Counted from the first letter of the stretch, positions 1,475 to 60,144 are shown. The stretch is DNA of 64,000 nt from Candidatus Methanomethylophilaceae archaeon (GCA_944320495.1 CALUHR010000013.1:352001-416000), one strand, 5' to 3'. Numbers and translations: made by a program. The notes: a model not told the origin generated them from the letters alone.

Positions 1475-2020
1475 TCGGACCCAGATCGCGTGGCGGCGGC
1501 GCATGTCGTCCTCGGAGATCTCCTCGCGGGACATTATCTCGCTGACGATGCCGTCGAACAGCAGCAGCGCGGAGTCCTCGAAGACGGTCCCCAGGGGGGC
1601 CACCCTGTGCAGTCCCTCGCCCTCGGGAACGCTCATGACCAGGGACACGTCGGAGACGCGGGTCAGCGGGCTTCCGCTGGTGCCCGTTATGCAGAATATC
1701 TCGGACCCTATGCGACGGGCGATTTCCGCTGTCTGCACAACCGACGACGTCCTGCCGGTGTAGGATATGAGGAGGGTGAGGTCCTCCTTCCCGATTATGG
1801 GGGTGGTCATCTCGCCCACGAAATGCACGTCGAGCCCGAGCTGGACGAGACGCACCGCGAACATCTGGCCCACCAGCCCGGAGCGGCCGGACCCGTAGAC
1901 GAAGACCTTGCGATGGCTCAGGATCCCGGAGACTAGCTCCTCCCTGGCGTCGGCGTCGACCGAGCGGACTGCGGTCCTGCAGGTGTCCAGCAGGGTGTCC
2001 AGGTCGTCCAACTCACTCAC
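1475..2020 (-). CDS. hxlB: SIS-domain 6-phospho-3-hexuloisomerase-like protein (ends at CGA 1475-1477)
   Basis: VFVYGSGRSG, SYTGRT and APLGTVFE motifs. RHAIWV then CGA matches the RHANLE C-terminus of HxlB/PHI. Confidence 0.85.
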
Positions 2021-3056
2021 CGGCGGCAGCGGCCGCCGCTTCTGACTTGCGACGCTCCTTGAGCTCCTTCGCGGCCCTCTTGGTGAGGATCCTCTCCTGG
2101 ATGATCCTCATGTACATCGCGTCGTGCTCCAGCAGCGGGGACATCGAGATGACGGTGCAGTCCGGCCTCATCTCGGCCATGGCCTCGGCGAGGGGCTCGA
2201 ACTTCAGGTCGCCCTTCTTGATGGGCGTGAGCCTCTTCTCTCCCGCGTCGCCGTACTCCACGCCGGAGAACTCGGTGTGGAGGCCTCCCTTGGCATAGGG
2301 CTCGACGGTCTCGATGAGGTTGATGAAGTCGTCGGGCTCGATGAGCGTCCCGCCCGTGCGGGAGTGGTAGTGGGCGAAGTTGATGACCGGCACCGGTCCG
2401 CCGACGGCCTCGCAGATGTCGAGGACCTGCTCGAGGGAGCCGAAGACGTCCTGCTGACCGGTGATCTCGATGCCGAGCCTGCACTTAAGGCCGACGCCGT
2501 TCCACCAGTCCATGAGGGCCCCGAGGTTCTCGTAGATGTGTTCGTCCACGTAGTCCTCGGTGCGCTTGCCGTCGTAGATGCCCAGGTTCGTGACCACGAT
2601 GTCCCCGTCCAGGGCGTCCAGGATGATGCCGGCGTGCCTTATGCTGTCGATGCAGCTGAAGGCGAGCTCGTTCTCGTCGCCCAGGTCCATGTAGTAGGGG
2701 GTGTGGATGGAGAGCTTGACGTCCATCCTCTTGGCCATGTGCCCGATGCCCGCCAGGCTGCCGAAGGTGTCGGCGACGGGGGAGGGCATGAACAGGAGGT
2801 CGTCGTCCTCCTCGATCGGCTCGTTGGGGTCGCTGATGGGCTCCTCGTCCCTCAGGATCTCCACGACGAAGTCCTCCTCGATGTCGGAGATCGTCAGGCC
2901 GACCTCCTCGTCCTCAGGCGGGCGGGGGTAGACCCCTGCGCGTACCATCTGGATCTCCAGGGCGCTGAGGCTGAGGTTGTGAACGTCCTCTATGCCGTCC
3001 TTCAGGGTGCGCCCCTTGCAGGAAAGGGGGATGCCGGCGGGGCCGAACCTTATCAT
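2013..3056 (-). CDS. Endonuclease IV-like TIM-barrel protein
   Basis: MIRFGPAGIP, SIHTPYY, INFAHYH, LHTEFSG motifs. Confidence 0.8.
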   Translation of the reverse strand: MIRFGPAGIPLSCKGRTLKDGIEDVHNLSLSALEIQMVRAGVYPRPPEDEEVGLTISDIEEDFVVEILRDEEPISDPNEPIEEDDDLLFMPSPVADTFGSLAGIGHMAKRMDVKLSIHTPYYMDLGDENELAFSCIDSIRHAGIILDALDGDIVVTNLGIYDGKRTEDYVDEHIYENLGALMDWWNGVGLKCRLGIEITGQQDVFGSLEQVLDICEAVGGPVPVINFAHYHSRTGGTLIEPDDFINLIETVEPYAKGGLHTEFSGVEYGDAGEKRLTPIKKGDLKFEPLAEAMAEMRPDCTVISMSPLLEHDAMYMRIIQERILTKRAAKELKERRKSEAAAAAAGE

Positions 3057-3211
3057 GGTGGCGGGCAACCTTACTAAAGTAGATAAGGGGTTCGTTGTGA
3101 CTTGGGCGGGGCGAGGGACCCGCCGGGATGTGGACGGTCGTCGCGTGCTGTTCGGAGCTTCCGCGGGACTCATCCAATATTATTAAAAACGGGATGGGGC
3201 TCGGGAAGCGT

Positions 3212-3814
3212 ATGAACACCGGCAGAGCAGTAGCCGTGGTAAGTGCCCTGCTGGCGATAGCCTCCCTGGCGGTGGCCTGGGTCCATTACGAGGGTATAAT
3301 GGCCATCGTGTCCTTCTTCGTGCTGGTGTTCGGCGTACTGGCATCCAAGAACTGCACCCTGAACACGAACAAGTTCATCCTGCTGGCATCCGTGGCATCG
3401 GTCGTTTGCACGGTCCTCTCCGTCACAGTGCTGGTGCAGGGGAACTTCTCCGACGCGGAGGGCACCCCAACCGTGACCTGGTTCGTGCTCATCGGCCTGG
3501 TGCACAGCGTGCCCGTGGTTCCCCTGACCTTCTCGGTGTACCCCATCATCGCATCGCTGTCCGGGGCGTCCTTCAACTGGGCCATCGTCCGCGGTCTGAG
3601 CCCCTTCATAGGGATGGGCATGGAGGTCCCCGGGTTCGTGCTGGAGTACATGTTCGAGGGGGCCGACAACTGGATGACCGACAACGGGTACATCCTGTAC
3701 CACTTCCTGATGACCGCGCTGGTCATGATCGTCTTCGCGTTCATCGCATCCTCGATCATGAGGAGGCACGGACTGGTCGTGACCGAGAGGGGGCTGGGTG
3801 AGCTGAGATGCTGA
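3212..3814 (+). CDS. Multi-pass membrane protein of unknown function
   Basis: About 6 hydrophobic segments and coding-like codon use. Confidence 0.65.
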   Translation: MNTGRAVAVVSALLAIASLAVAWVHYEGIMAIVSFFVLVFGVLASKNCTLNTNKFILLASVASVVCTVLSVTVLVQGNFSDAEGTPTVTWFVLIGLVHSVPVVPLTFSVYPIIASLSGASFNWAIVRGLSPFIGMGMEVPGFVLEYMFEGADNWMTDNGYILYHFLMTALVMIVFAFIASSIMRRHGLVVTERGLGELRC

Positions 3815-4497
3815 CCGCCGAGCAGGATGCCAGGGAGAGGCGCGTCGCATGGGCGATGCTCATAGGATGTCCCCTGTCCTTCATGTTCATCTCCGTGTTC
3901 TCGTTCCTGGGCGTGGCGCCCGGGATCGAGGCAGGGCATCCTCCGATATACCTCATCGCGACTTGCATCGCATGGGCGATAGTGTCCGTGTTCCTGCCGG
4001 CCCTCAGGCTGCTGAGGCTGGTCTCCCTGCCCTCGGCGTTCCTGTTCGTGGTCTACGCGAACATGTACTTCTACGTGGTCTCGCTGAACGTCGGGCTGTA
4101 CCTGAACGTCAGCTGGTGGGGGGACATGGGGCATGTCATCTCGTCCACCATCGTCACCATGATCGTCTTCCTGGCACTGTGCATCATGGAGGTGTACTCG
4201 CCCGCCCACGTGACCTTCGGCAGGAGGGGAGGGATGGCGGCGATGCTGTTCTTCGTCGCCCTCAGCTTCGGCGGGATCTGGGAGATGATGGAGGGCTTCG
4301 CCGACTTCGCTGGGGGCGGATCCTACATGGTCTACGGTGCCAGCGACACCATGGGGGACCTCACCGCCGACCTGATCGGCGTGATCATCGTCACCGCCTG
4401 CGCCTACTGGTACCTCGGCAGGAGGGCCCCCGCCGACATCTGCTCTTCCATACGCTTCGGGAGGGGTGCTTTCGTTGTCAGGGAAGACGTCGAGCGA
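3808..4497 (+). CDS. DUF2238/YjdF-like membrane protein (ends at CGA 4495-4497)
   Basis: WWGDMGH, IWEMME and DTMGDLTADLIG motifs. Without the CGA stop it overlaps the next gene by about 680 nt. Confidence 0.65.
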
Positions 4498-8993: not shown

Positions 8994-10349
8994 GTGACAT
9001 ATCTCACGGTCCCGTTCTTCACCTACATATTCGCGGTGCTGCCGGTCTGGCTGCCCCTGCTGGCAACGGACCTGGTGGCGCTGTACATCCTCATATTCAG
9101 GGAGAGGCACGACCCGAGGACGCTGATATTCTGGGTGGCGGTGGTGTTCATACTGCCGTTCCTAGGCTTCCTCTTCTACCTGCTGTTCGGCTGCACGCTG
9201 TTCGTCAGACGGTGGGGCTCGCGGAAGGAGGCATCCGACAGGAGGTTCCTGTCGGGCGTCTCGGAGGAGCCCCCGGAGGACGGCCGCAGGCTGTCCAACG
9301 TGCTCTCCAGCGCCGGGGCCGACGTGTACACGTCCGGGAACGGCGTCAGGCTGTTCTGGGACGCTCCGGACTCCTGGGGGACCTGCATGGACGCCATCCT
9401 CGCTGCCAGCCGCAGCGTGCACATCGAGACCAACAGGCTCCCGGACGACCCGTCCCTGAGGGACATGCTGGCCTCCAAGGCGCGGGAGGGAGTCGACGTC
9501 CGCATCGTCACCGGGACCCGCGGGTTCGGGAGGACCCCCGGTCTCCGCGAGCTCAGGCGCGCGGGGGTCAGGTACACAACCTTCCACGGATGGTTCCTCT
9601 CTACGTTCTCGCTCAGGGTCGAGAGCCGCTGCCTCAGGGATCTCCTCGTGGTCGACGGCTCTGTGGCGTTCACCTGCCTCGGGTCGTCGATAGAGGTCGA
9701 GGGCAGGGCCGCATCCCGCCTGGACCGCAGGTTCCTCGCCGACTGGGCGTTCGCATCCGGGGAGGCCGTCGACGTCCACGAAGACGTCCAGTCCTCCGAC
9801 GGCGGGTGCGGGGTGCAGGTGGTCCCGTCCGGTCCCGATTCGTCAGGGATGGCCATGCTCCACGGGTACTCCGAGATAATATCGGAGGCGAGGGACAGGC
9901 TGTACCTCACGTTCCCGTTCCTGATCCCCAACGACGAGATGTACAACGCCATCAAGCAGGCGGTCATCGCGGGCACCGACGTCAGGATACTCATCCCGTC
10001 GGTCTGCAGGCACTGGTACCAGCCCTGGAACTCCCTTGCCGCCTCCAACCCGCTCATGCAGGCCGGCGCGAGGGTGTACTTCTCTGACACGGCGTCGGTG
10101 AGATGCCTCGCCGTGGCGGACGGCAGGGTGCTGGCCATGGGGACCGGCGTCTTCAACTCCAGGTCCCTGTGGGCAGACTACGCGGTGAACGTGGTCGTCA
10201 GGTCGGAGGATGTGGCCAGGGACGCCGAGAGGGCGTTCATGGCCGAGCTCGACGGTGCGGCGGAGTGCCTCCCGGAGGAGTACAGCCGCAGGTCCTTCGC
10301 GGATCGCATCAAGATTGCGGTCGCCAGGATGCTGATGTTCCTGAACCGA
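8994..10349 (+). CDS. Cardiolipin synthase-like PLD protein lacking HKD motifs (ends at CGA 10347-10349)
   Basis: N-terminal PLDc_N-type TM pair, V(V)PSGP, LYLTFPFLIP, FNSRS. VARMLMFLN matches the Cls C-terminus. Confidence 0.75.
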
Positions 10350-12610: not shown

Positions 12611-13105
12611 ATGGCATGGCCGTTCGGTAAGAAGGATGAGAAGCCGGTCGAGAACAAGCTGCCGGAGCAGTCCGAGAGGCAGTACAACCTGTTCTGGATG
12701 ATCCGCATGAGCCCGTTCGCCGACCGCTCGGACGAGGAGGTCCAGCAGGCCATCGACAGGAAGATCGCGGAGGTCGAGAGGACCCTGAGGACCCAGCCCG
12801 TCGAGATGGTCCGCGTCAAGAGCGAGAGGAAGGTCGAGAAGCTGAAGGCGCTCTCCGGTGACAGCGCAGCCATCGCCGCCGAGAGGGACGAGGCCATCCT
12901 CCACTTCAACAGGAACATGATCGAGGACAACGGAGGTTCCGTCCCCACCGATCCCGAGAAGATCTCGGCCACCGTGTCCAGGGAGGGGTGGGCCGACGGG
13001 ACGGGGCTGGTGGACGTCGATGGGATGCCCCACTGCCCCAGATGCGGCTACATCAACAGGAAGACGAAGGTCTGCGTCAACTGCGGATCGAAGCTGAGGC
13101 ACCGA
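12611..13105 (+). CDS. Hypothetical protein with coiled-coil and C-terminal zinc ribbon (ends at CGA 13103-13105)
   Basis: CPRCG..CVNCGSKLRH then CGA. Confidence 0.65.
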
Positions 13106-13712: not shown

Positions 13713-15083
13713 ATGCCGTGCATGTTCCCGATGGATCCGTTCAGGCTGCAGGACCACGGCACGACGCCGGAGAGGGAGGCTGTCGCAGGTTTCACCACGT
13801 TCCTCTCGATGGCGTACATCCTGGTCACCGTGCCGGGGATACTCTCATCGCCGGACGGGATGCAGTGGGGCGCCGTGTTCCTGGCGTCGGCGATATCGTC
13901 GGCCGTCGGCACCCTCGTCATGGCGCTGTACGCCAACGTGCCGTACGCGCTGGCCCCAGGCCTCGGGATGGCCTCGTTCCTCACGGTGACCGTGTGCGGT
14001 GACATGGGATTCACCTGGCAGGAGGGTCTGTCGATCGTCTTCATATGTGGACTCGTGAACATCGCCATAACCCTGAGCAACGTCCGCCGCCTGATTATCG
14101 CGGCCATACCCCGCAGCCTCCAGCTGGCGATATCCGGGGGCATAGGGCTGTTCCTGGCCTACGTCGGACTGCTGGAGTCCGGCCTCCTGGACCTGTCGGG
14201 GAGCACCCCCGCCCTGGGCGATCTGGCCAGCCCCCAGGTACTGCTGTTCCTCGTCGCCCTCGTCGTGTCGATGCTCCTGTACATCCGCAACGTCCGTGGG
14301 GCGCCGATCATCGCCATCGCGGTCATCGCCCTCCTGGGCATCCCGATGGGCGTGACGCACATGGGTGACAACGTGGGCTTCGGAGAGGCAGTGTCCCAGC
14401 TATGCTCCTCCTTCGGGGCGATCTTCACATCCGAGGGCATACCGGCGCTCTTCTCCGACACCAGCAGGATACTGCTGGCGCTGGTCGCCATCGTATCATT
14501 CAGTCTGGTGGACACGTTCGACACCATCGGGTCGTTCGTGGGGACCGGGAGGAAGGCCGGCATATTCACGGAGGAGGAGATGACGACCGCCGGCGATGGC
14601 GGGTTCAGGACGCGGATGGACCGCGCCCTGGTGGCCGATTCCGTCGCGACCTCCGTGGGGGCGGTGTTCGGCACCTCGAACACCACGACGGTGCTCGAAT
14701 CGGTGGTGGGGATCTCGCAGGGCGGCAGGACGGGTCTGGCATCCGTGGTGACGGCCGCGTGTATCCTGCTCATAATGCCGGCGGCGGCACTCATCAGCGT
14801 CATACCAGTGCCGGCCTATTCCGCGATCCTGGTGATGGTGGGCGTGATGATGCTCTCGTCGTTCAGGAGCATCGACTGGGAGGACCTGGGGGAGGCGGTC
14901 CCGGCGTTCTTCGCGGGGCTGTTCATCGCCCTCTGCTACAACATCAGCTACGGGATCGGATTCGCGTTCATCGCCTTCTGTCTGACCAGGGTGTTCCTCG
15001 GCCGTGCCGGGGAGGTCAGCAGGCTGATGTGGGTCGTCTCAGCCCTTTTCGCGGTGATGTTCGCGCTGCAGGCGATCGTGCGA
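13713..15083 (+). CDS. NCS2/AzgA family purine permease (ends at CGA 15081-15083)
   Basis: LAPGLG, GIGLFLA, DTFDTIGS, GGRTGL; start 13713, 13722 or 13731. Confidence 0.9.
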
Positions 15084-15095: not shown

Positions 15096-16145
15096 TCGCC
15101 TGCGCTTCCTTCCGGACATCGCCACATAGGCGAGCAGATGTTCCAGCTGCACCCTCTCGAGGGGCATGCCCATGCCCCCGGACCCGCACTGGGCTATGCG
15201 GAAGTCCGTCTCCCCGACCTTGTCCAGGAGCCTCACGGCCTCCGCCCCCTCCAGCCCGAGCTCCAAGGCCTGCCTCTGGATCTCCGTGGCGATCTCGCGG
15301 CAGGTCATGCCCTCGCCGATGAGCAGCCCGTCCAGCGCGTCCCTGGCGGCCATGAAGTCGCCCGAGCGTGCCTTGGAGAGCATGTCCCTGACCCCGTTGG
15401 AGGAGCGGGTCTCGGACACGGCGAAGACCGCGTCGAGGTCCACGCGGCCTCTGGTCACGGCGGCCGCCTGGAGCATGGCCATCGCCCTCCTGATGTCCCC
15501 GTCGGCGGCCATGGCGATACCGTCCGCCGCCCCGCGGTCCAGTTCGACGCCCTCGGACTCTGCGACCTCGACGATGCGCTTCGAGAGGTCGGCGCGGGGT
15601 ATGGGGACGAACCTGACGACCCCGCACCTGGACCTCACGGGGTCGATTATCATGGACTGGTGGTTGCAGGCGAGGATGAACATGCAGTTGCGGGAGTAGA
15701 CCTCCATGGTGCGCCTGAGGGCCTCCTGCACCTCCTTGGACATCGTGTCGACCTCGTCGATGAAGACGACCCTGAACCTGACTCCGTCTATCGATGCCGT
15801 GGACACGAACTCCTTGATTCTCCAGAGGGGGCTGTCCATCGTCTTGGTGACGGTCCTGACGGTCGTCTCTCCCTCGTCATCGGTCTCCGTGACGGTGACC
15901 TCGCGTTTCTTGGTGAGGTCGGAGGCGTCGATCTCCAGGAAGTTGCCCTCGATGTTGCCCTCCAGGACCTCCCTCGCGACGATGAGCGCGCAGGTGGTCT
16001 TGCCGGTCCCCGGGGGGCCCGCCAGGAGGAGGTGCGGCACGCTCTGCTGGGACGTCAGCGGTCTGAGCCTCTCGACGGCCATCGGCTGGCCCACGATCCC
16101 GTCCAGGGATGTCGGCCTGTACTTCTCCATCCAGACGGACTCCAT
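15096..16145 (-). CDS. rfcS: Replication factor C small subunit (ends at CGA 15096-15098)
   Basis: [29 protein letters not shown]. Confidence 0.9.
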
Positions 16146-16239: not shown

Positions 16240-17040
16240 ATGAACGGCATGGACGACATCGCGGAGGATCTGAGGGTGGTGTCGGACGGGACGAGGTTCT
16301 CGATCCTGGCCATCCTCCTCAGGCACGACATCTGCTCCGGGGCCCTGGCACGCAGGCTGGGGATATCCGAGGCGGCCGTGTCCCAGCACATGAGGGTGCT
16401 GAGGGAGGCCGGTTTCGTCACTCCCGTCCGCCGCGGGTACTTCACCCACTACGAGGTGGACCGCGACAGGATCCGCATGCTGGCACATGCTCTGGAGGCC
16501 ATGTCCCTGAGCGACCGCGCCCCATGCGACCCGGTCCTCGAGGGATGTGACAGGAAGGGCCGCGGGAGCTGCCGGTCGGCGGTCCCCGGTGCCGGATGTC
16601 CCAGGATGGAGGGCGGTGAGCCCCCTTGCCCGGGGTGCCGCCGCTGCATGACAGAGAGAAGGTCGGGAATCATGAGGGTAGCAGCCACATACGAGAACGG
16701 GGAGGTCTTCCAGCACTTCGGGAGGACGCAGCAGTTCAAGGTCTACGATATCGAGGACGGGAGGGTGGTCTCGTCCGCGGTCCATGGGACCGGCGGCAGG
16801 GGTCACGGCGAGCTCATCAATGTGCTGAGGGAGCTCGATGTCTCCGCGCTCATCTGCGGGGGCCTCGGGGGCGGTGCGATGCAGGGGCTCGAGGCTTCGG
16901 GCATACGTGTCGTGCCGGGATGCTCCGGGGATGCGGACGCCGCCGTGCAGGCGTTCGCCGAGGGGAGGCTGGAGGGACCCACGGGGCCCACCTGCGACCA
17001 CCACGGCGAGGGTCACCAGTGCTCCTGCGGGAGGCACCGA
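16240..17040 (+). CDS. ArsR-family HTH + Cys-rich linker + NifB/NifX-like domain in one frame (ends at CGA 17038-17040)
   Basis: ISEAAVSQHMRVLREAG; QHFGRTQQF, LICGGLGGGA; HHGEGHQCSCGRH tail. Confidence 0.75.
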
Positions 17041-19239
17041 TCGCCCGTAGAACGGGACCGAGTCCCAGCCGGTGCGGCGCCTCCTTATGCGCCGGCCGGC
17101 GTCCTCGTACCCGTCCATGACCTCCTTGGTCACGGACGGCATCACGAGCCCCAGCGCCGCATCGAAATGACGCTGGCACACCTTCGCGGCCCCGGGGTCC
17201 TCGCGGTAGGCGGCCAGTCCCGCCTCGCGGCACACCGAGGCGAGGTCCGCGCCGGTGTAGCCGTCGGTGGACCTCGCGACCGCATCCAGGTCCACGCCGT
17301 CCAGAGGCATCCTCTTTGTGTGCACCGCCAGTATGCTCCTGCGGGCCCTCTCGTCGGGCTTCCCCACGAGGACGAGCCTGTCGAACCTGCCGGGCCTCAG
17401 CAGGGCCGGGTCTATCATGTCCGGGCGGTTGGTGGCGCCCATGACGGTCACGTTGCGCATGCCCTCGACCCCGTCCATCGAGGTGAGGAGCTGGGCGACG
17501 ACCCTCTCCCATGCGGAGCCGTCCCCCGCTCCGCGGATGGGGGCGATCGAGTCCAGCTCGTCGAAGAATATGATGCAGGGGGCCATCTGCTTGGCCCTCT
17601 TGAAGATCTGACGGATGGCGCGCTCGCTCTCGCCCATCCACTTGCTGGCCATCTCGGGACCGTTGACCGAGATGAAGTTGGTCCCGGACTCGTTGGCCAT
17701 CGCCTTCGCTATCAGGGTCTTGCCGGTCCCGGGCGGTCCGTAGAGCAGGACCCCCTTCCCCGGCTCGATGCCGAGCCTCTCGCAGGGGTTGCCCTCCTCG
17801 GTGGACAGCACCTCGCGGATCTGCGCCCTCACATCGTCCAGGCCCCCGACGTCCTCCCAGGTGACCTTGGGGATCTCGACCAGCACCTCGCGCATGCCAC
17901 TGGGCTCCACGTCGGACAGCGCAGCCCTGAAGTCGTCCATGGACACGCGCATGCTCTCGAGGATCTCCGACGGGACCTTCCGGTCCAGGTCGAACTCCGA
18001 CATGCGGGCGCTGAGGCAGTGCATGGCGGCCTCCCTGCAGAGGGCGGCCAGGTCGGCGCCCACGAAACCCTGGGTCATGGAGGCGAGCGCGTCCGGGGTG
18101 ACGTCCTCGGTCAGTGGCATCTCCCTCAGGTGGACGGAGAGGATGTCCGCCCTCGCCTTCCTCCCGGGAATCCCGACCTCGATCTCCCTGTCGAACCTTC
18201 CAGGGCGTCTCAGCGCCGGGTCGATGGAGTCCTCCCTGTTGGTGGCGCCGATGACTATGACGTTCCCCCTGTCCCCGAGGCCGTCCATCAGGGTGAGGAG
18301 CTGGGCCACCACCCTGCGCTCCACCTCGCCAGAGACCGCGTCCCTGCTGGGGGCGATGGAGTCTATCTCGTCCAGGAACACGATGCTGGGTGCGCTCTCC
18401 TCCGCCTTCTTGAATATCTCCCTCAGGCGCTCCTCGCTCTGGCCGTAGTACTGGCCCATGATCTCCGGTCCGCGGACCGAGAACAGGGTGGCGCCCGACT
18501 CGTTGGCGACCGCCTCGGCCATGAGGGTCTTCCCTGTGCCGGGCGGTCCGTAGAGGAGTACGCCCCTCGGGGCCCCTATGCCCAGGCGCTCGAAGAGCTC
18601 CGGATGCTTCAGGGGGAGCTCTATCATCTCACGGATGCGCTTCAGCTCGTCATCCAGGCCGCCCACGTCGTCATAGGTGATCTGATGGCCGGTCTGGCTC
18701 TTCGCCGTCTCACGCTTGCGGGGACCGTCCCTGACGACAACCTTGGTGGATTCCGTGACGATGACCGGTCCCTTCGGGACGGTGGATGCGACCGAGAACG
18801 TGGAGCGGTTGCCCATGAGGGCGATGTTCGGCACGATGATGTCCGTGTCCGCCACGAGGGGGCGGTTGAGGAGCCCCCGGAGGAAGATCTCCTCGATCCC
18901 GTCCTCGAACCTGATGCGCTTGCCCTCGGGGATGTTCGGGGAGAGGACGACCTGCTCGGCGGGGGCGGGGTCGCATCTCCTCACGGTGACGCTCTCGTCC
19001 ACGCTGACCCCCGCGTTGGTCCTGGTGAGGCCGTCTATCAGCAGCAGGCCGCGGCCCTCGTCCGTCTGGTCGCCCTTGAAGACCTTGGCGACGACGGTGC
19101 GCTTCCCGACGATCTCGATGGTGTCCCCCAGCTCCAGACCGAGGGCCCTGCGGGACTCGGAGTCCATCCTAGCCCTCCCATATCCCGCCTCGGACTGGGA
19201 CCTGGCCATCGCGACTTTCAGGACGATCGAATCGGACAT
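17041..19239 (-). CDS. cdc48: CDC48/VAT AAA+ ATPase, 732 aa (ends at CGA 17041-17043)
   Basis: Two GPPGTGKT Walker A motifs, [20 protein letters not shown]; FYG (HbYX) directly before CGA. Confidence 0.95.
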
Positions 19240-19284: not shown

Positions 19285-20076
19285 TCGCTCCCGCAGGCTT
19301 TCCATGGCGTCCGCCGCGTGGGCCCTGAACAGGTCCCTGAACTCGGGGTACTCGCCCATGCCGCGAACGATGCAGCGGGGGTTGTACCCGGCCGCGGCCA
19401 TGACGCTCCTGAGGGAGTCCTCCTCGTCCCCGGCGAGGTCGTTGTTGGCGTGGTCCCCGGCGACGATCATGAGCGGGAACATCGCGACATCCTTGCGATC
19501 ACAGCCCTCCATGAGGCCGAGGGTGCTGTCGTAGTCGGGGAAACCCTCCACCGTCGTGACGTAGACGTCCCTGCGGCCGGAGGCGATCAGCCTGAGCTGG
19601 AGCTCGCTGTACGCCGAGTTCGCGAAGTGGGTGGTGCCGTGGCCCATGAGCACCATGGCGTCGCCTTCCGCCTCGGGGCCGTATGCGGCCCCGATCGCCT
19701 CGATGAGGGCGTCGAAGTCCTCGGAGGTCGTCAGGAGAGGCCTCCCGACGGTGATGGCGTCGAACCTGTCTCTGCGCCTCTCCACCTCCTCCATCATGTA
19801 GTCGTACTCGACGCCGTTCATCACGAGCGTGGGCTGGACCACCACGGTCCCGTAGCCCTCGTCGGCCAGCCTGTCCAGGGCGGCATCGACGAAGTCGACG
19901 TGGATGCCCCTCTTCTCGAGGATCCTTATCACCGGACGGCTGGTGAACGCCCTCCTGACATCCCATCCGGGGAAGGATTCTGCGATGTGCCTCTCGATGG
20001 CGCCGATGGTCTTCTCGCGGGTATCATCGTAGCTCGTCCCGTAGCTGGCGACGAGGATGGCCTTCTTTTCCGACAT
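19285..20076 (-). CDS. cbiK: Sirohydrochlorin cobaltochelatase (CGA 19285-19287; TGA five codons later)
   Basis: ASYGTS, MGHGT, PLMIVAGDHANND. Confidence 0.92.
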
Positions 20077-24611: not shown

Positions 24612-26482
24612 GGATGGCCGTCTTCCCGTACCCCTACCGTCCCGGCCAGAGGGAGCTGGTCTCCTTCATAGACCGCTCCGCCCGGGACGGCATGTGTCCC
24701 GTCGTCGAGGCGGGGACGGGCACCGGGAAGACCGTCTCCTCCCTGGCCGGCATGCTCCCGCTGGCCGGGGAGCGGGACCTCAAGATAATCTATCTGACGC
24801 GCACGAAGTCCCAGCAGGCGCAGGTCCTGCGGGAGTGCTCCGCCATCGGCGGGGTCGTGTGCATCGGCCTCCAGGGCCGCTCCGCCTCCTCCTGTCCGAT
24901 GATGAGGGACGACCCGGACCTCAGGTCAGGCACCCCGGAGGAGATCTCGAAGCTGTGCTCCGAGCTGAAGCGCAGGACCGAATCCGGATGCGCCTGCCCG
25001 TACTTCGCCAACCTCGAGGGTGCGGACGAGGAGCACTGGCTCTCCGTCCTGTCGCAGGAGGGCATGACGCCGGAATCGTCCTCCGAGGTGTGCGAGGAGG
25101 CGGGACTGTGCCCGTACGAGCTCCTCAAGCACCTCCTGCCGAGGGCGGACGTCATCGCCGCCTCGTACCCGTTCATGTTCGTGCCGCCCATACTCGCGAG
25201 GTTCGAGGAGTGGGTGGGCGTGCCGGTGGAGAGGATGCTCGTCATCGCCGACGAGGCCCACAACCTCCCCGACTACCTGCGCGAGGTGCAGACCTACGAG
25301 TACAGCAGATGGTCCATGGACATGGCCGAGAAGGAGTCCAGGGAGTTCGGGGACCGGGAGATCCACCAGGGGATCACCGTCTCGGACGTGGCCGCCGTGC
25401 TGAGGGAGATACTGGAGGCCACGGCCAAGGAGTACCTGATCGACGAGGACGGCATCATCCCCCCGCACTTCGTGGAGGACGAGCTGATGGCCCGCCTCGG
25501 GGTGACGTCGGTCGGCCTCGGGAGGATCTCGAGGGGCCTGACGGACCTGGGGGACGTCATCGAGGAGCAGAGGAAGCAAAGGCGCAAGCTGCCCCGCTCC
25601 TACATCGGGATGATGGGGAGGTTCCTCGACGCGTGGATGTCGGAGGAGGACCCCAGCTGCGTCCGCCTGGTTATCGGAGGCACGAACCCCTGCTTCCAGT
25701 CCTACTGCATGGATCCAGCCCCGGCGGCGGAGCCGCTGAACGCGTGCCACTCGGCGCTGCTGATGTCGGGGACGCTGGAGCCTCTGGAGGACTATGTACG
25801 GGAGATGGGCATCGAGAGGCCGGCGATCCGCCGCCAGCCCAGCGCGTTCGACCCTGGCCATCTCCTCACGCTGTACACCGACAGGGTGTCGATGAAGTAC
25901 GAGGAGAGGTTCCTCGAATCCAACTATGCGGCGCTGAGGTCGCTCCTCCTCGACACCGTGAACTCCGTCCGCGTGAACACGGCGGTGTTCTTCCCGTCCT
26001 ACGACCTGATGGACAGGATGGTGTCCGAGGGCATCGTCGACGCCCTGGGCAGGGACGTGTACTTCGAGCGGAGGGGCATGCCGCAGGGGGAGCTGATGGA
26101 GACCTTCGACCAGTTCAGGACCTCCGAGGGGAGCGTCCTCTTCTGCGTGACCGGCGGCAGGATGAGCGAGGGCCTCGACTTCCCGGACAAGGCCCTGGAG
26201 CTCGCGGTGCTGATCGGGATACCGTATCCGAAGCCCACGGCCAAGTCCAGGGCCATGGTGCGCTACTACGACCGCCGCTTCGGGGACGGGACGAAGTACG
26301 TGACGAGGATCCCGGCGGAGCGCAAGATGCGCCAGTCCATCGGCCGTCTGATAAGGTCGGAGACGGACCGCGGGGTGGCGGTCATACTGGACCGGAGGGT
26401 CGTCTCCATGGATCTCGGGGCGATGCTCTGCTCCGACATACCCTCGGCGGTGGCCGCGTTCCTCTCCGAAGGCCGGTCGCGA
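24608..26482 (+). CDS. XPD/Rad3/DinG-family Fe-S DNA helicase (ends CGA CGA TAG)
   Basis: EAGTGTGKT, Fe-S cysteines, DEAHN, SEGLDF, QSIGRLIR. Confidence 0.9.
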
Positions 26483-27243: not shown

Positions 27244-27873
27244 TCAGGCGCCGTCCAATCTGGCCGCATCGACCGAGGCCCTGGCGAGCGCATCGATGTC
27301 GACGGCAGCGCTCATCTCCGCCACCTTGGCGGGGTCCGCCTCCGTGACGGGGTGGATGGGAACGATGGAGCATCCGTGACCCGGTCTGATGGATATGTCA
27401 TAGGTCCCGATGTCCTTGGCTATGGCCTCGATCTCGAGCTTGTCCATGCCGATGAGCGGTCTGACGACGGGGAAGTCGAGACCCTGGTTCTCCGCGCGTA
27501 TGTTGCGGAGCGTCTGCGAAGCGACCTGTCCGAGCGAGTCGCCCATGACGATCCCGGAGCATCCGAGCCTTCTCCCCAGCTCCCTCGCCGTCCTCTGCAT
27601 GACGCGCTTGCACATGACGCACTGATAGGGATGGGGGCAACCATCGTGTATCGCGTCCTGTGACGGCGCGTGGGGGGCGATCCAGAGCGGGAGCTCCTGT
27701 CCGGTGGATTCCCTGAGCGCGTCTGCGATGTCCCTGACGTCGTCCAGCTGGACCGGTCCGGAATAGGGGGTGTTGTCCATGTGGAGGAGGACGACCTCGG
27801 CTCCCACGGAGCACATTCTGTGGACGGCGACCGGCGAGTCGATCCCGCCGGACATCAATGCGATGAGCCTCAT
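27244..27873 (-). CDS. ThiI-like PP-loop sulfurtransferase domain without THUMP
   Basis: LMSGGIDSPVA, CVMCKR, GDSLGQVASQTL.N, RPLIGMDK. Confidence 0.85.
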   Translation of the reverse strand: MRLIALMSGGIDSPVAVHRMCSVGAEVVLLHMDNTPYSGPVQLDDVRDIADALRESTGQELPLWIAPHAPSQDAIHDGCPHPYQCVMCKRVMQRTARELGRRLGCSGIVMGDSLGQVASQTLRNIRAENQGLDFPVVRPLIGMDKLEIEAIAKDIGTYDISIRPGHGCSIVPIHPVTEADPAKVAEMSAAVDIDALARASVDAARLDGA

Positions 27874-33457: not shown

Positions 33458-33673
33458 TCGCTCCTCGTCGTCCTCGACGTACTCCAGGATGTCCCCCGGC
33501 TGGCAGTCGAGGGCCTTGCATATCCCGTTCAGCGTCGAGAATCTTATCGCCGCGATCTTCCCGGTCTTGATGTTGGACAGGTTGACGTTCGATATCCCGA
33601 CCTTCTCGGCCAGCTGGTTGAGCTGGATCTTGCGGTCGGCCATGACCCTGTCCAGGCGGAGTATTATCGTCAT
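33458..33673 (-). CDS. Xre/YozG-like HTH regulator, 71 aa (ends at CGA 33458-33460)
   Basis: AIRFSTL..ICKALDCQPGDILEYVED. Confidence 0.92.
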
Positions 33674-34518: not shown

Positions 34519-35319
34519 TCGGTTTAGGTCCATGCCGAACACGACGGACGGTGCCGCGTATGTGATCGATCCCAGGGAGACGATGTCCGCCCTGCCGATG
34601 TACGCCGGGATGTCGTCCGGGGAGATCCCTCCGGAAGCTTCGACGAGGATGCGGTCGCTGACCGCCTTGACGGCGTCGCGGATCTGTCCGGTCAGCTCGG
34701 GACCGCAGTTGTCGGCCATGACGATGTCCGCTCCCATCTGGGCGGCGGTGACGGCGTCGTCGACGTTCTCCACCTCGACCTCCACCTTCACGGCGAAGGA
34801 CCTCTTGGAGAGTCTCTCCATGCAGGCGCGGACGCCCCCGCACGCCTTGATGTGGTTGTCCTTGACCATGATCATGGAGTCGAGGCCCATCCTATGGGGG
34901 TCGCCACCAGCGATCCTCACTGCCTCCTTCTCGAAGTCGCCGAACCCGGGGGTGGTCTTCCTGGTGGCCGCGACGACGATTCTCCCGTCGGCCTTCGCGA
35001 CGGCCGCGGAGGTCGCGGTGGCGACCCCCGACATCCTCATCAGGATGTTCAGGGCCGTGCGCTCGATGGTTATCATGGACCTCATGGGTCCGGAGAGGGA
35101 GAGGACCCTCGTGCCGGCCGCGACCCTGTCCCCGTCCCTCACGAGGGGCGTCACGGACACCCCGGCGGACTCGAACAGGTCCTCCACGATCGAGATCCCG
35201 GCGACGGTGCAATCGCCCTCGCAGACGATGCGGGCGGTGCCGTCCGTGTCCGGGACCGTCAGCTCGGTGGTGATGTCGCCGCGGCCCACATCGGCCCTGA
35301 GGAACCTCTCCGCGTCCAT
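34519..35319 (-). CDS. nadC: Quinolinate phosphoribosyltransferase (CGA 34519-34521; TGA three codons later)
   Basis: GDITT, ERTALN, ATRKTTPG, VKDNH, EASGGI. Confidence 0.95.
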
Positions 35320-43412: not shown

Positions 43413-44440
43413 GGCGCGTGCCGATGGCCGAGGTGCCCTCGCGGATCGCGGGGGAGACGATAAACAGGCTGATGTCCCTCGGATACGTGGACATCCACGC
43501 CAGGATAGCGAAGGGCGACGGCTGCCGTCTGGTGCCGATACTGCCGGAGCACGTGGACGACGTCTCCGCGATGGGGTTCGCCATCACGGAGGGAGACGCC
43601 CATTCGCTGGACCGCAGGACGCCCCAGGAGAGGATCTCGGAGATCCTCGGGGGCATACCTGAACTGAGGGGTCATCTGCCCGACCGCTGGGAGTTCGTCG
43701 GTGACATCGTCATCCTGAAGCTGGACCCGTCCTGCGAACCGTATCTCGACGGCATCGGTGACGCCTATGCGAAGGTGCTCGGCGCCAAGACCGTGTGCGC
43801 GGACGTCCACGGCGTGTCCGGGGAGTTCCGTCAGCCCAGCATGAGGGTGATCCACGGCACCGAGACCGAGTCGGTGCGTCTCGAGAACGGCATCCGTTAC
43901 CGCTTCGACGTCACCAAGGTCATGTTCGCCTCCGGCAACACGGACGAGCGCATGCGCATGAGGAGCCTGGACTGCACCGGCGAGACCGTCGTGGACATGT
44001 TCGCTGGCATAGGGTACTTCACCCTCCCGCTGGCCAGGTTCTCTGGGGCCCGCAGGGTCTTCGCCTGCGAGAAGAATCCCGAATCCTACCATTATCTGGT
44101 GGAGAACGTCCGTCTCAACGAGGTGGGCGATGTGGTGCTGCCCATGCTCGGTGACAACCGCTCCATCCCGGGCAGGGACTTCGCGGACCGCATCCTGATG
44201 GGGTACGTGCAGACGACATCGGAGTTCCTGCCGGCGGCCCTGAGGATGATACGCATCGGCGGGATCATCCACTACCATGACACCTTCCCGGTGGGCGACC
44301 AGGCCCGCAGGGTCGACGAGATCTTCTCGCCGCTCTGCGGATACGAGGTCCTGGGGATCCGCGAGGTGAAGTCCTTCGCCCCGTCGGTGTCCCATTACGT
44401 CGCCGACGTCAGGATAACTTCTCGTTCGCCCCGCAGGCGA
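43409..44440 (+). CDS. taw2: tRNA wyosine-pathway SAM-dependent transferase, Taw2/Trm5 family (CGA 44438-44440; TAG at 44456)
   Basis: DMFAGIGYFT, EKNP, ADRILMGY, IIHYH. Confidence 0.8.
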
Positions 44441-46553: not shown

Positions 46554-47999
46554 ATGTCCGACCTCCTCTCTTAGGTGAAAGGTGGGGAATCCACCATTCT
46601 CGAATTCAAGGAGTCTCTGCAAGAGGACAGCATCGGCTGGTTGAAGACGGTCGTGGCGTTTGCCAATGGCAGGGGCGGAAGGCTCGTCGTGGGCGTAGAT
46701 GACAGGGGTGAGGTGTTCGGAGTCACCAAGGAGGAGCTGGAACAACTCTGTCAGAGTATCGACGATTCCATATCGGATTCCATAGTCCCGCAGATATCGA
46801 GAGATGTCTATGTCCAATCTCTTGAGGGCGAGTCGGTGGTGGTCGTAGAGGTATATCCAGGGCCTGGCAGGCCATATTACATCAAGAGGCTCGGTGTGAA
46901 GGAAGGGACTTTCGTTCGCAGGGGAGCATCCACTCGCCTGGTGGACGATGCCACCTTGGATGAGCTCAGGCTTCAGGGGAAGCGCTCGACATTCGATTCT
47001 CTAGAGAATCTCGATATTGCTGTTACCAGAGAGAGGACAGATTGTATAATCAGAAAGGTTGGGGAGTTATACGGTGCCGAGATCGATGAGACCGATCTCC
47101 GCAACTGCGGTATCATCAGGGTGAAAGATGGCCAGGATATTCCAACCAATGCATATGCCCTTCTTTGTAGCGACTCTCCGTTCCTTTTCACAGAAGTCAG
47201 GTGTGCTCTCTTCAAGGGTCGTAACGGGACCGAATTTCTAGATCAGGCGGATTTCTCATGTCCTATATTCGAACAGATTGAGAATGCCTATCGTTTTGTT
47301 CTCCGCAATATCAGGAAGAGCGGACGTGTAAGTGGTCTTGTTCGCGAGGACAGATACGAGATACCGCCCGATGCGATTCGCGAGGTAATCGTGAACGCCG
47401 TTCAGCACAGAAGCTACATCAATAGCAATCGTCCGATACATCTGGCCATATTCGACGACAGATTGGAGATAACGTCCCCCGGAATCCTTCTGATAAGTCG
47501 TGATGAGATGAAGCAAGGTCGCACGGAGCATCGCAACCCCGTGATATCCAAATTCTTCAGACTCGTCGGCATTTGCGAAGGTTGGGGGAATGGGATGTCA
47601 ACGATCATCCACAACTGCGTGGAATATGGGCTGCCGGAACCATCCATAGAGGAAGGGCCCGCGGATGTCATAGTCACAATCTGGCGTCCTGTGGATTATG
47701 ATCAGTCTCATGACACTGATGATGACACTGATGACACTGATAATCAGTCTCATGACACTGATGACACTGATAATCAGTCTCATGACACTGATCAGATAAG
47801 AACTGTCCCCAGAAATCGCAGAGAACAGATAATCCAGATGATGGAATCGGATCCATCCATCTCAATAGAGGGCCTGTCCAAGAAGTTGGGTATGTCCAGA
47901 AGCACGATCAACCGTGATATACAGAGGCTCAAGGCAGAAGGTGTTCTCTCGAGGGATGGAAGCAGCAAGAAGGGCCTTTGGACGATTCACCGGAATCGA
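46554..47999 (+). CDS. AlbA_2/Schlafen-like domain + HATPase_c_4 + HTH protein (in-frame TAG 46572-46574; ends at CGA 47997-47999)
   Basis: ILEFKE, VAFANGRGG..VGVDD, REVIVNAVQHRSY, IFDDRLEITSPG, RNP; lower GC. Confidence 0.8.
47701..47792 (+). repeat. In-frame tandem repeat encoding QSHDTD(D)TD
   Basis: Three ATCAGTCTCATGACACTGAT units with GACACTGAT sub-repeats. Confidence 0.9.
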
Positions 48000-48009
48000 G
48001 GTCTGATGC

Positions 48010-49518
48010 ATGAGACTGACCGCCGAGAACTACGACATCGGCATCGCCGAGCCGACGGCGTTGCTGCACGAGGACGACTGCAGGATCATCGGGATCCGCG
48101 AGGGCGACCACGTCCGCATCGAGGGGCGCGGATGCGTCACCGCGATAGCCAGCATGTCGGACACCCTGGTGAGGCGGGGCACGGTCATGATAGCCTGCGG
48201 GGTGCTCGGCGCCAGTTGCATCCACCCCGGCGATGAGGTGGAGGTCACCGCCGCGCCGATCCCGGAGTCCGTGAGGGCCATCCGCGGCAAGATGGACGGG
48301 GAGGAGCTGTCCCCGGAGGAGATCTCGCAGATCGTCGACGACGCGGTCCATGACAGGCTGTCGAGGATCGAGACCTCCGCATGGCTCACCGCCCTACACA
48401 TACGCGGCATGTCCATGTGCGAGACGGCGTCCTACACCAGTGCCATGGCGTCCACCGGCTCGGTCCTGGACTTCGGGGACCGCCGCGTGTTCGACTTCCA
48501 TAGCTTCGGAGGGGTCCCGGGCAACAAGATCACACCGATCGTGGTGTCGATCGTCGCGTCCGAGGGCCTGCTGATCCCGAAGCTCTCGTCGAGGGCCATA
48601 AGCAGTGCCTGCGGGACGGCCGATTTCGTGGAGGTGTTCTGTCCGGTGACCCACGGCTCGGACGATGTCCGCAGGATCGCGGAGTCCGAGGGCGGGGTGT
48701 TCTCCTGGACAGGTGCCACCGACCTGGCCCCCGCCGGGGACCGCTTCATCAGGGTCCAGCGTCCGCTCGGTATCGATCCGAAGCCGCAGATGCTCGCGTC
48801 GATCATGGCGAAGAAGGTCGCTGCCGGTGCCACCGATGTGCTCATGGACATCCCGATGGGGTCCGAGACCAAGGTCAGGTCCCCGGAGGAGGCCAAGGCC
48901 TACGCCCGCGACCTGATGGAGCTCGGGGACCTGCTGGGCATGAGGGTGGAGTGCGCGGTCACGTACGCGGACCAGCCCCTGGGCGTCGCCGTCGGGCCCG
49001 CGCCGGAGGCGAGGGAGTGCATCCAGGTGCTCGAGAACAGGCCGGGCCACGAGGAGGTGGCCGAGAAGGCATGCATCTGCGCCGGGATGATCCTGGAGAT
49101 GGCCGGGATGTGCGACGGCACCGTCCGCGCGAGGGAGTGCCTGACGTCCGGCCGCGCCCTGGAGAGGTTCAGGGCGATCGTCCGCGCCCAGGGCGGTATG
49201 GACGGGATAACTTCCGAGGACGTACGGCTGGGGCGCTTCTCCGCCGATGTCGTCTCGCCGAGGGACGGTTTCGTCAACCGCATATCGAACAGGGCCGTGG
49301 TCTCCGTGGCGAAGGCCGCCGGTGCCCCGGCGGACAAGGGCGCCGGGCTCGTGCTCTCGAGGAAGCGCGGGAGGAAGGTCGCGAAGGGCGACGTGCTCAT
49401 GACGGTGTACTCGGACAGCGAGGACAAGCTGGAGGACGCGCTGGAGGCGGCCGCGGAGCTGGAGCCGTTCGACATCGACGGGATGCTGCTGGACAGGATC
49501 AGGCCCGGCTCCCTCCGA
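48010..49518 (+). CDS. deoA: AMP phosphorylase (ends CGA TGA)
   Basis: HSFGGVPGNK, SSRAISSACGTAD, MDIPMG, DKGAG. Confidence 0.92.
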
Positions 49519-49822: not shown

Positions 49823-49899
49823 GCCCGCGTGGGGTAGCTTGGATATCCTGTGAGATTGCGGATCTCTTGACCCGGGTTCGAATCCCGGCGCGGGCACCA
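49823..49899 (+). tRNA. tRNA-Arg(GCG)
   Basis: GCCCGCG/CGCGGGC acceptor stem, loop TTGCGGA, TTCGAAT, encoded CCA. Confidence 0.93.
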
Positions 49900-56603: not shown

Positions 56604-56821
56604 TCCATTCTCATACCCTGTCATTCGTGGCCGAGAGGTTTCGTTTCTGTTCACATCGCTCAGGGCATCGGACGGATGCGGCAGCGACATCGGATTCCGG
56701 GGCGGACACGGGCCCGTTCCCAGAGTTCGTGCCGAGGACAATCGGGGGCGCTGTCCGCGATAGGCCCGGGTCAGAAAGATGGAAGGTGCCGGGCGTATGC
56801 CCAGACGCCCCATACGGTGTT

Positions 56822-58024: not shown

Positions 58025-58103
58025 GGTTCCGCATGTCCACGGAATATAAGAGGGGTTCGAGAAGGGGAAGGGGGACCCGCTGGGGAGAGGATCCGTTTTC
58101 CGA

Positions 58104-58454
58104 TTATTCGGATTCGAGGTTCGGATCCCCAATCATGATTAGAGGTCTGATCTCCAGACTGTAGTACAGTATGTGCCAGATTGCCACCCCGAAGAGGAAT
58201 CCCGCCACGGTGCCCGCGACGACGAAGGTCGGATTGTAGGTCTCCATGATCCACCAGTATGCCGCAGTTATGATGACCGCCGGTATCGCATAGGCGATGC
58301 AGCGGATCAGCCTCTTCTGGTCGGACCATATCTCTGATCCGTCAATCCCGATAATGCCCAGTTTCCTGTTGCATCTGCTGACCAGGATGAATGCTATCAC
58401 CAAGGTGATGAGTGGTGGAATTAGACACAGGGTGGTGGGATGCATTTTCACCAT
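58104..58454 (-). CDS. Small 3-TM membrane protein
   Basis: Hydrophobic segments; lower GC. Confidence 0.5.
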   Translation of the reverse strand: MVKMHPTTLCLIPPLITLVIAFILVSRCNRKLGIIGIDGSEIWSDQKRLIRCIAYAIPAVIITAAYWWIMETYNPTFVVAGTVAGFLFGVAIWHILYYSLEIRPLIMIGDPNLESE

Positions 58455-58674
58455 TCTTCTACTTCGTAACCGTTGGGTACGGTATGCCAAACAACCCACG
58501 TTTCGTAGACCGCATAGTTCTTGCAATCAGCAATCAGTTTTCCGTACATTCAACCCTCCCGACCGTTAGGTCGAAAAATGAATCGTTCGAAGCTCAATAT
58601 TTAAAGATTATATTCGAAAATTATGAAAAATTAAAATGTAGTCACACAGCCATCATATGATTCAAAGTGCTACA

Positions 58675-60144
58675 TCGCTCGGCGGAACCGAACAGATCCA
58701 TGACCCTCTTGGTATCCGGGGAAACATCGGAATGGAATCTGAATCCGTTGCTCACGATGGTCACATATCTCGAGGCCAGCGAGAACGCGTCATCAACTGT
58801 GAGTCTGGAGTCGCCGTCTTCGAGAATCTGGGCTATGGCGGTGCGTATGCCTGTTGACAGGAACATCAGGAACCTTTCCCATCCATGACTTCCTGATGAA
58901 TCGGCCGAGAAGATGCTGTCGATGAGTGCATGGGATTGCTTCAGAGTCATGCTCCTCAGATTAATGAGATCCATGGCATACTCCCATTGCTCTTCCGTGG
59001 TCAGTATCACCGATGATCCGATGCATCCGTCAATCTCTGATATCAGATGCGATGTCGCGGAGTCATTGTGCGGCAGATTGTTGTACCTCAGCATCCTAGA
59101 TACGCTGGATTCCGTGTATCCGATGCTCTTTGTCATGTTCCTGATGTGGCGGACCGGTTTTGTCAGGAACACATTAAAGGTGAACATGCAATCATCATTT
59201 CCTCTGCCACGGTCGACATATGTCCAAGCTCCGTTGTTCAGTCTTATCCCGAGACATCCTTGGTACACATCATGCTCTATTCCATGATGCTCAGCTTTGT
59301 GATATTCTGTGGCCATCATGCCCAGGGCTGAGCGCAGAGTGTCAGAGCATGTCCCGATTCTCATAGTCATCCTGTCTCCGTCCATGAGCATCCTGGCGAT
59401 CTCCGGGGGATTGTCCGAAATCTCGTCCAGGACCCTGACGAGTCTGACGTTCGTACCTGTCGCGATGGCCATGCGTCTCCACGCACCCGCGTTCATGCTC
59501 CTGCCGATGGTAGCGCCTGCGGCTATGGGGCGGCCCATGTCATCGGAGCAGAAAATCAGCGACACGTCGTCCGCATCGTGGTCCATCGGGCTCTTCATGG
59601 ATGCGTGTCTGAGTCCCCCGTTCCTGCCCGAGAGTCCGAAGACGATGACAGGGCCGTCGGATCCCTCGCGGATCGTCCATGCATACCTCTTGATCGATTC
59701 GTAGTCTATCTTCGATATTGCCCTTCTGATCAATCCAGCGGTGGATGCTGCATCGCCGAGGACCGGTTCGAGGTCCAAACCTCTGAGGAGACGGATACGG
59801 TCGGCACTAGGCAGGGGATTGATCGCATAGCAGATAGCCAATGCGAGCATCATGTCTCCGTCATCGCCGAAGACGCATCTGAGTGCATCCCTCATCCCGC
59901 ATCTCTCTGCTGCGTTGGAGGCAATCAGCACGCTTCCGCGATCGAGGGTGGAGAACCTTCCATCGGACAGCATGGAGCATGCCGCATCGATCGGCAGCGG
60001 TTTCACATCGACCATCCCGGTCTTCGGATCGAGGATGCCGATGTACTCCTTCATGCTCACAGGGTTCTTCCTACCAGGGACGCGTCTCGACTCCGTCCGG
60101 TAGACGTACGTCCTGCCGTTCCTTTCCACGTACACTATGGGCAT
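58675..60144 (-). mobile_element. Degenerate IS1634-like transposase-derived ORF, 489 aa (ends at CGA 58675-58677)
   Basis: N-terminal GRTYVY..PG.KNP..YIGILDPKTG resembles IS1634 transposases; DDE triad not recognisable; no terminal repeats seen. Confidence 0.55.

Follow-up and report, generated by a model that had tools for sequence, protein, structure and literature searches.

The window analysed here is a stretch of 64,000 nucleotides, positions 352001-416000 of contig C13 of the genome of a methanogenic archaeon from the chicken gut (14 contigs, 1.77 Mb, 62% GC, about 1,700 genes), in which the arginine codon CGA was found at the ends of genes and was nearly absent from their interiors. 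Very probably CGA acts as a terminator in this organism and is read by the archaeal release factor aRF1 in competition with a weakened tRNA-Arg(UCG), with a feedback on aRF1 synthesis that resembles the one of the bacterial gene prfB. The initial annotation of the window had listed 17 genes with the first in-frame CGA at or near the expected C-terminus and had read this codon as a stop: the observation was confirmed and reaches the whole genome, and the sequence comparisons described below support the interpretation.

The organism is placed, as we take it, in the order Methanomassiliicoccales and probably in the family Methanomethylophilaceae. Its genome is designated G000; other G-numbers stand for the species of relatives and g-numbers for genera. 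The genus of the window (g1) comprises at least 61 species and is distinct from g20, which we take to be the genus of 'Ca. Methanomethylophilus alvus'. DNA of the window was found in chicken-gut metagenomes of several studies. tRNA genes were searched with ARAGORN, domains were assigned with Pfam profiles, and the phylogeny was a quick single-gene tree of aRF1; RNA was compared in the form of assembled contigs, and the statements made on it cover the differences listed.

CGA at gene ends of the genome

All in-frame CGA codons of the genome with a coding signal upstream were classified: 167 were terminator-like, 73 were near a standard stop (12 codons from it or fewer), 6 were ambiguous and 2 were sense-like; the control codons CGT, AGA, GGT, CTA, ACT and CAA were mostly internal in the same classification, and the skew of CGA goes far past what chance would give. 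No sense-like internal CGA was obtained within the 64-kb window, as had been noticed there by eye. Counting of CGA by position over the stop-to-stop open reading frames (ORFs) with a clear coding signature gave a U-shaped distribution (629/353/119/39/7/10/22/33/71/212 from the first to the last decile), with nearly empty interiors and enriched ends; the heavily loaded first deciles bear out the earlier remark that CGA recurs in 5' ORF extensions, and CGG, also said to be in use inside genes, was found there at about 1.9 per 1000 codons.

The coding signal changed at CGA. The GC content of third codon positions (GC3) was 0.88 over the 60 codons that precede the first late CGA; beyond it the value was 0.61, which is the genome average. 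The change-point from coding to noncoding sequence, determined with CGA scored as zero, fell on the codon just before CGA in 22 of 101 cases and was mostly no more than 5 codons away from it. A gene set built with four stop codons contained 1,151 confident genes, ending with TGA (854; 74%), CGA (253; about 22%), TAA (27; 2%) and TAG (17; 1.5%). The next in-frame standard stop was located at a median distance of 29 codons after CGA and after TGA alike, and no clear excess of backup stops was observed after CGA, either overall or after splitting by the +4 base; the CGA ends are independent of backup stops, because the distribution of these distances is the same as after TGA.

The base following a terminal CGA was T in 58% of the cases, against 30% after TGA; the hexamer CGATCG was found at 18% of the CGA gene ends of the genome and TGATCG at 5%. 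For the 8 internal or ambiguous CGA codons of the genome the next base was T in 0/8. These figures suggest that context may help to decide between stop and arginine at CGA.

CGA in relatives

The orthologue alignment proposed with the initial annotation was carried out by comparing every protein of G000 with about 2 Mb of sequence sampled from 40 relatives: CGA ends of G000 were matched by TGA in 78 pairs, by TAA in 5, by TAG in 1 and by CGA in 36. CGA and TGA replace one another at the same stop position from species to species. The CGA ends were shared with separately assembled species at 62–98% protein identity. The use of CGA in relatives was determined from homology-verified codon counts; these replaced a self-trained codon model without a GC3 rule, which was unsuitable for GC-rich relatives (shadow frames were mixed in).

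Internal CGA amounted to 0 in the homology-verified codons of the genus, more than 300,000 in all. Individual members gave effectively nil (0/21,021; 0/25,876; 0/22,228; 0/14,202; 1/16,168 codons), and the few CGA codons within alignments of later genus samples were situated at alignment ends, apart from one in aRF1. Most of the other genera of the family that were sampled were near nil as well (0/8,381; 0/7,921; 1/11,389; 0/3,813; 0/6,566; 0/5,345), and two other families of the order showed normal use, 7.2 and 1.7 CGA per 1000 codons.

Gene ends at CGA were frequent in G018 (10/34), G013 (12/72), G010 (10/41), G046 (6/24), G049 (5/16), G050 (5/29) and G053 (4/31); they were nearly absent in G015 (0/60), G002 (0/30), G044 (0/22), G058 (0/19) and G066 (1/40), and none was found among about 150 gene ends in other genera. 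CGA gene ends are common in only one part of the genus. Most of the clade uses CGA in neither role; the lineage of the window is one step further.

The cognate tRNA of CGA

The window encodes tRNA-Arg(UCG), which is cognate to CGA, and tRNA-Arg(GCG) (Table 1). The former carries the sole 31.39 mismatch among the 45 tRNAs of the genome. In the genus the positions 31 and 39 of tRNA-Arg(UCG) were unpaired (A.A, C.A or U.C) and the other four pairs of the stem covaried; this covariation suggests that the tRNA is under selection. One subclade (G008, G015, G007, G059) had instead the anticodon loop CCUCGAC, in which position 33, almost invariably U in tRNAs, is C. The normal pair C31-G39 and the loop CUUCGGA or CUUCGAA were present in five outgroups, of which two are sister genera and three are other families.

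Genomes with A.A (or U.C) had many CGA gene ends and those with C.A or C33 almost none, the exception being G067 (GC 48%). A strict link between the type of the 31.39 pair and CGA ends was rejected owing to this exception. The trend is strong and has the standing of a correlation, not of a test, because the groups follow the phylogeny on the aRF1 tree.

The release factor gene

The genome contains one aRF1 and one pelota gene, and the aRF1 gene has an in-frame CGA at codon 78 (Table 1). Arg78 aligns with an arginine of the Halobacterium structure 4af1; the residue is conserved and the frame continues beyond it. Codon 78 was CGA in 38/41 genus members, and the other 22 arginine columns (about 880 codons in the 41 members) contained a single CGA. 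The three exceptions had CGC, AGA or AAG at codon 78, and two of them had a CGA elsewhere, at codon 11 or 25. Sister genera that are otherwise free of CGA likewise showed a single CGA in aRF1, at codon 11 (g15, g19), 25 (g18, g20, g25) or 50 (g10); in g13, also otherwise CGA-free, no CGA was found in aRF1. Basal genera and other families had several CGA codons in aRF1 or had them at other positions, consistent with normal use.

The flanks of codon 78 were fixed as NCU-CGA-CUN: the preceding codon was GCT (30) or TCT (8), the next one was always CTN, and GCT was found although GCC is the favoured alanine codon. No wider synonymous constraint was detected around codon 78 (diversity above the mean of the gene) and no conserved fold (alifold energy unremarkable). 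The retention of an otherwise banned CGA within the first fifth of the aRF1 gene matches what an RF2-type feedback loop would predict.

Two further observations concern the release and rescue factors. Codon 186 of aRF1 (Arg of GGQSSVRF) was the minor codon CGT in 41/41 species and is thus a further invariant codon of this gene; the pelota gene (contig C1, L028:1231-2526) itself ends with ...RYRL-CGA.

The gmhA-gmhB joint

Besides that of aRF1, the genome has one more sense-like CGA, at the joint of the fused gmhA-gmhB frame (Table 1). No ATG, GTG or TTG was found near the joint for the second (GmhB) half. The CGA was present at the joint in 9/9 genus members examined, five of which otherwise make no use of CGA. 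Two sister genera had AAG at the joint and, six codons further on, CGA for the arginine of the DRDGT motif; in M. alvus, gmhA and gmhB are separate genes. Programmed partial termination at the joint may thus be inferred from the position and conservation of the codon and would give GmhA along with the fusion GmhA-GmhB.

Interpretation and alternatives

The proposed mechanism is the following. CGA and UGA differ only in the first-base pyrimidine, and the single aRF1 would read CGA as well as UGA by accepting C or U before GA. tRNA-Arg(UCG) would be weakened, not lost, the 31-39 pair of its anticodon stem being gone, and would still win at a few special sites, including aRF1 Arg78 and the gmhA-gmhB joint; abundant aRF1 would halt its own synthesis at codon 78, which would constitute a negative feedback. 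As to history, CGA would first have disappeared from coding DNA across a large share of the family, regulatory CGA codons would have been retained or gained, and in one GC-rich part of the genus changes of TGA to CGA at gene ends would then have been tolerated and would have accumulated.

The claim that CGA terminates translation, as made for the window, is supported in that three independent lines show genes to end at CGA: the change-point, the alignment of CGA with TGA and the internal absence of the codon across the genus; a clean and absolute stop did not stand. CGA would be a stop at which a weakened tRNA still competes, because tRNA-Arg(UCG) is encoded and at least two conserved CGA codons, those at position 78 of aRF1 and at the joint of gmhA-gmhB, need to be read as Arg. 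A frame-aware reading at the ribosome fits all data, and a CGA-reading aRF1 set against a weakened tRNA is its most economical form.

Several findings weigh against termination by aRF1. The tRNA-Arg(UCG) gene is retained with features of the arginine type and under apparent selection, hence CGA is no pure stop. Both aRF1 itself and the gmhA-gmhB fusion require CGA to be read as arginine. In the inspection of aRF1 that had been suggested with the initial annotation, NIKS and YRCDSTF (the YxCxxxF motif) were kept, unchanged in comparison with relatives that use CGA normally; a change of motif as the cause of CGA reading was rejected, NIKS and YRCDS being unaltered. Finally, a Flavodoxin_4 gene (contig C8, 55331-55840 (+), L270:332-841) has CGA inside the domain (TGKTI-R-PFCTNEGSG), where the orthologues have AGG. 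It is possible that this gene is truncated or broken in the lineage or that it is read through; programmed recoding was considered for it and rejected, the codon not being conserved.

A wider form of the proposal, according to which the whole CGA-free clade of these gut methanogens would run CGA as a conditional stop (competition of aRF1 with the weakened tRNA, autoregulation of aRF1 and readthrough giving GmhA and GmhA-GmhB) and one GC-rich lineage would have made of it a general fourth stop, is given slightly better than even chances.

That CGA is an unassigned codon, rarely decoded by a crippled tRNA, at which ribosomes stall and are rescued by Pelota/ABCE1 or by unspecific action of aRF1, is unlikely for G000. 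The aberrant tRNA-Arg(UCG), which is still present, the unchanged recognition motifs of aRF1 and the lack of CGA both inside genes and at their ends in most of the genus and in several sister genera would agree with it, and stalling and rescue may describe the genus members without CGA gene ends. About 250 genes of G000 depend on CGA, however, among them those of CDC48, RFC and pelota, and routine stalling with rescue would seem a heavy cost where a fifth of the proteome is concerned; moreover, backup stops are not in excess after CGA, and the retention throughout the family of an in-frame CGA in the gene of the release factor in particular is what factor-dependent reading predicts. Misreading of CGA as a stop by yeast eRF1 has also been reported (PMC7379694).

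C-to-U editing of mRNA, by which CGA would become UGA, is very improbable. Leaving room for it is the form of the RNA data, compared as assembled contigs only; among the differences listed for these contigs, C>T or G>A were not in excess over T>C or A>G. An editing enzyme would be blind to the frame, while out-of-frame CGA is plentiful (3,663 on both strands of the window); the proteins derived from DNA align well with those of relatives, and editing would destroy aRF1 and the gmhA-gmhB fusion.

The standard code, with CGA as a very rare arginine codon and with proteins extended at the C-terminus as far as the next standard stop, can hardly be upheld. It accords with the existence of the tRNA-Arg(UCG) gene and with the presence of a standard stop within 10 codons at 8/17 sites of the window. 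It needs junk tails on a fifth of the proteins, with a median length of about 29 codons and a maximum of hundreds, often running antisense through neighbouring genes, and leaves unexplained why a codon excluded from interiors is common precisely where the orthologues have their stop.

A sequencing, assembly or polishing artefact changing T to C at TGA stops has a negligible probability: the genome is a 14-contig assembly and the best-matching run may be its own source, but CGA ends recur in separately assembled species, the DNA of a strain from an independent study had changes at 1466 and 1487 and none at 1475-1477 (among the differences listed), and most stops are still TGA. A systematic error of TGATC to CGATC was also rejected, TGATC not being depleted. 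Artefact and merely rare arginine codon are both practically ruled out by the comparison with relatives, CGA being absent inside the coding sequences of the genus and aligned with TGA at their ends.

The 17 sites of the window

All 17 positions given in the initial annotation carried CGA on the strand named there (Table 1). With CGA as arginine, the frame stays open for 18 to 735 further codons at 9 sites (1475-, 4495+, 10347+, 15081+, 15096-, 17038+, 17041-, 33458- and 47997+) and meets a standard stop in 0 to 10 codons at the other 8 (13103, 19285, 26480, 27873, 34519, 44438, 49516 and 58675). The former sites are diagnostic; their run-on is often antisense through the neighbouring gene, and codon score and GC3 fall at CGA. 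The latter fit the claim, each of them being uninformative alone. For the gene ending at 47997 the codon-bias test was uninformative (low-bias gene). Pfam domains were located entirely upstream of CGA, and some profiles were matched to the last position (CbiK 262/262, QRPTase_C 169/169, HTH_26 63/63); no Pfam match was obtained for the genes 3808-4494 and 58678 to about 60160. The gene following the 4495 site begins at 4484 in a different frame.

Table 1: Features of the window and of other contigs of the genome (window positions unless a contig is given; "tail" is the open frame following CGA).
Feature	Gene or locus	CGA	Strand	Data
SIS-domain gene end	1478-2008	1475..1477	-	tail 234 codons; score 0.92 -> 0.01; SIS upstream
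229-codon gene end, function unknown	3808-4494	4495..4497	+	tail 216 codons; GC3 0.87 -> 0.43; score 0.57 -> -1.24
PLD/cardiolipin-synthase-like gene end	9003-10346	10347..10349	+	tail 74 codons; PLDc_2 ends at residue 412/448
Gene end	12623-13102	13103..13105	+	TAA 9 codons on; uninformative alone
Xanthine/uracil permease gene end	13713-15080	15081..15083	+	tail 379 codons, antisense through next gene; domain 22-414 of 456
RFC small-subunit-like AAA gene end	15099-16172	15096..15098	-	Rep_fac_C ends at residue 330/358
ArsR-HTH + Nitro_FeMo-Co gene end	16240-17037	17038..17040	+	tail 735 codons, antisense to CDC48; domains end at 240/266
CDC48 gene end (732 codons)	17044-19239	17041..17043	-	tail 270 codons; last domain ends at residue 693
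cbiK end	19288-20067	19285..19287	-	CbiK 1-262/262 at residues 2-256 of 260; standard stop 4 codons on
XPD/Rad3-like helicase gene end	24605-26479	26480..26482	+	CGA CGA TAG; non-diagnostic alone
Exosome Csl4/Rrp4-like gene end	27876-28436	27873..27875	-	TGA immediately after; non-diagnostic alone
Small HTH_26 (Xre-type) gene end	33461-33673	33458..33460	-	HTH_26 1-63/63 at residues 6-68; CGA is codon 72; tail 220 codons
nadC (quinolinate phosphoribosyltransferase) end	34522-35325	34519..34521	-	QRPTase_C 1-169/169, ends at residue 266/268; standard stop 2 codons on
TRM5/TYW2 methyltransferase gene end	43400-44437	44438..44440	+	standard stop 5 codons on
Low-GC3 Schlafen-AlbA_2 / HATPase_c_4 / HTH gene end	46575-47996	47997..47999	+	domains end at 457/474; tail 78 codons
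Nucleoside-phosphorylase-like gene end	48016-49515	49516..49518	+	TGA next
Low-bias gene end, function unknown	58678 to about 60160	58675..58677	-	TGA 10 codons on; weakest of the 17
tRNA-Arg(GCG)	49823..49899		+	ARAGORN; reads CGC/CGU, reading of CGA not expected
tRNA-Arg(UCG), cognate CGA decoder	61317..61390		+	ARAGORN; 31-39 A.A mismatch, anticodon loop UUUCGGC
aRF1	contig C2, 85936-87165 (L029:682-1911:-)	codon 78	-	in-frame CGA, counted from ATG
Fused gmhA-gmhB, 360-codon frame	contig C13, 193621-194700 (L269:322-1401:-)	joint	-	CGA exactly between the SIS (GmhA) and HAD (GmhB) halves

The ends of orthologues in related species were as follows. At the 1475 site the orthologue of G013 had TGA at the aligned codon, and at the 10347 site TGA was found at exactly the aligned codon in G013 and G004. 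CGA was present at the aligned codon of the 15081 site in G013 and G018, and G004 had 4 extra codons followed by TGA; at the 15096 site G018 had CGA at the aligned codon and G013 had it two codons later. The aligned codon was CGA in G018 at the 17041 and 19285 sites as well. At the 49516 site the closest relative, G018, had CGA TGG, so that the backup TGA is gone and CGA is the sole stop there.

The palindrome CGATCG at 17038-17043 forms the shared stop of two convergent genes. The stretches 44000-48000 (GC 0.59) and 56000-60000 (GC 0.575) of the window contain weakly biased genes, one of them that of the Schlafen-AlbA_2 / HATPase_c_4 / HTH protein, also free of internal CGA; these lower-GC stretches are probably acquired DNA.

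Significance and comparison with known systems

To our knowledge, no free-living organism has gained a fourth stop codon from a sense codon; the accepted code changes of free-living cells that we know of are from stop to sense or swaps of amino acids, and changes from sense to stop have been seen only in organelles. If the proposed reading is true, this would be the first cellular genome caught in gaining a stop codon, with intermediate stages alive in sister lineages, and a sense-to-stop change would be feasible with as many as about 1,700 genes in the genome. The relatives appear to keep the steps (codon loss, regulatory use, general use), which would make codon capture testable against an ambiguous intermediate. 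In these genomes about one gene in five will be fused or over-extended by standard gene callers. The PylRS/tRNA pairs in wide use for code expansion come from relatives of this group.

New here are the CGA of aRF1, the CGA of gmhA-gmhB, the aberrant anticodon arm of tRNA-Arg(UCG) and the confinement of CGA ends to a part of the genus.

Sense codons serve as stops in the codes of some organelles: AGA/AGG in vertebrate mitochondria (table 2), TCA in Scenedesmus (table 22) and TTA in Thraustochytrium (table 23). As in these codes, a sense codon (in table 2 also that of arginine) vanishes from the interiors and marks the ends of genes. Unlike organelle genomes, which are tiny and have a dozen or so genes, the present one is that of a free-living archaeon, with about 250 genes concerned, with the cognate tRNA kept and with arginine at special sites.

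The bacterial RF2 gene prfB is autoregulated by an in-frame UGA, passed by a +1 frameshift with a Shine-Dalgarno-like stimulator. The similarity to aRF1 consists in a codon apparently read by the factor, placed early and in frame in the factor's own gene and conserved in position across species; the difference is that there is no frameshift here, CGA being decoded as arginine in the continuing frame. The arrangement is thus prfB-like and not the same mechanism.

That no described code uses CGA as a stop, as stated with the initial annotation, agrees with the literature searches, which turned up no account of a CGA stop for this archaeal group; a 2026 preprint has raised the possibility for two unrelated archaea. 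In these two assemblies from hydrothermal vents CGA is missing from recognisable domains, and a role as stop is raised there and left untested (bioRxiv 10.64898/2026.04.02.715157). They represent an unrelated lineage in which CGG is reassigned to Trp and no tRNA(UCG) was found; here CGG is in use, tRNA(UCG) is present and termination is backed by the alignment of orthologues.

Yeast eRF1, a class-1 factor of the same eRF1/aRF1 family, was reported to act on CGA, a codon that is UGA-like and poorly decoded; the action was proposed there as error or rescue at rare CGA repeats, not as the normal ending of genes (PMC7379694).

A tRNA-Trp(CCA) with a 4-bp anticodon stem has been described for Blastocrithidia and ciliates (background cited in PMC13092985). 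Here, too, a tRNA in conflict between stop and sense lacks the fifth pair of the anticodon stem; in tRNA-Trp(CCA), however, the short stem enables the reading of a stop codon, whereas the putative weakening of tRNA-Arg(UCG) hits the cognate reader of a codon that has turned into a stop.

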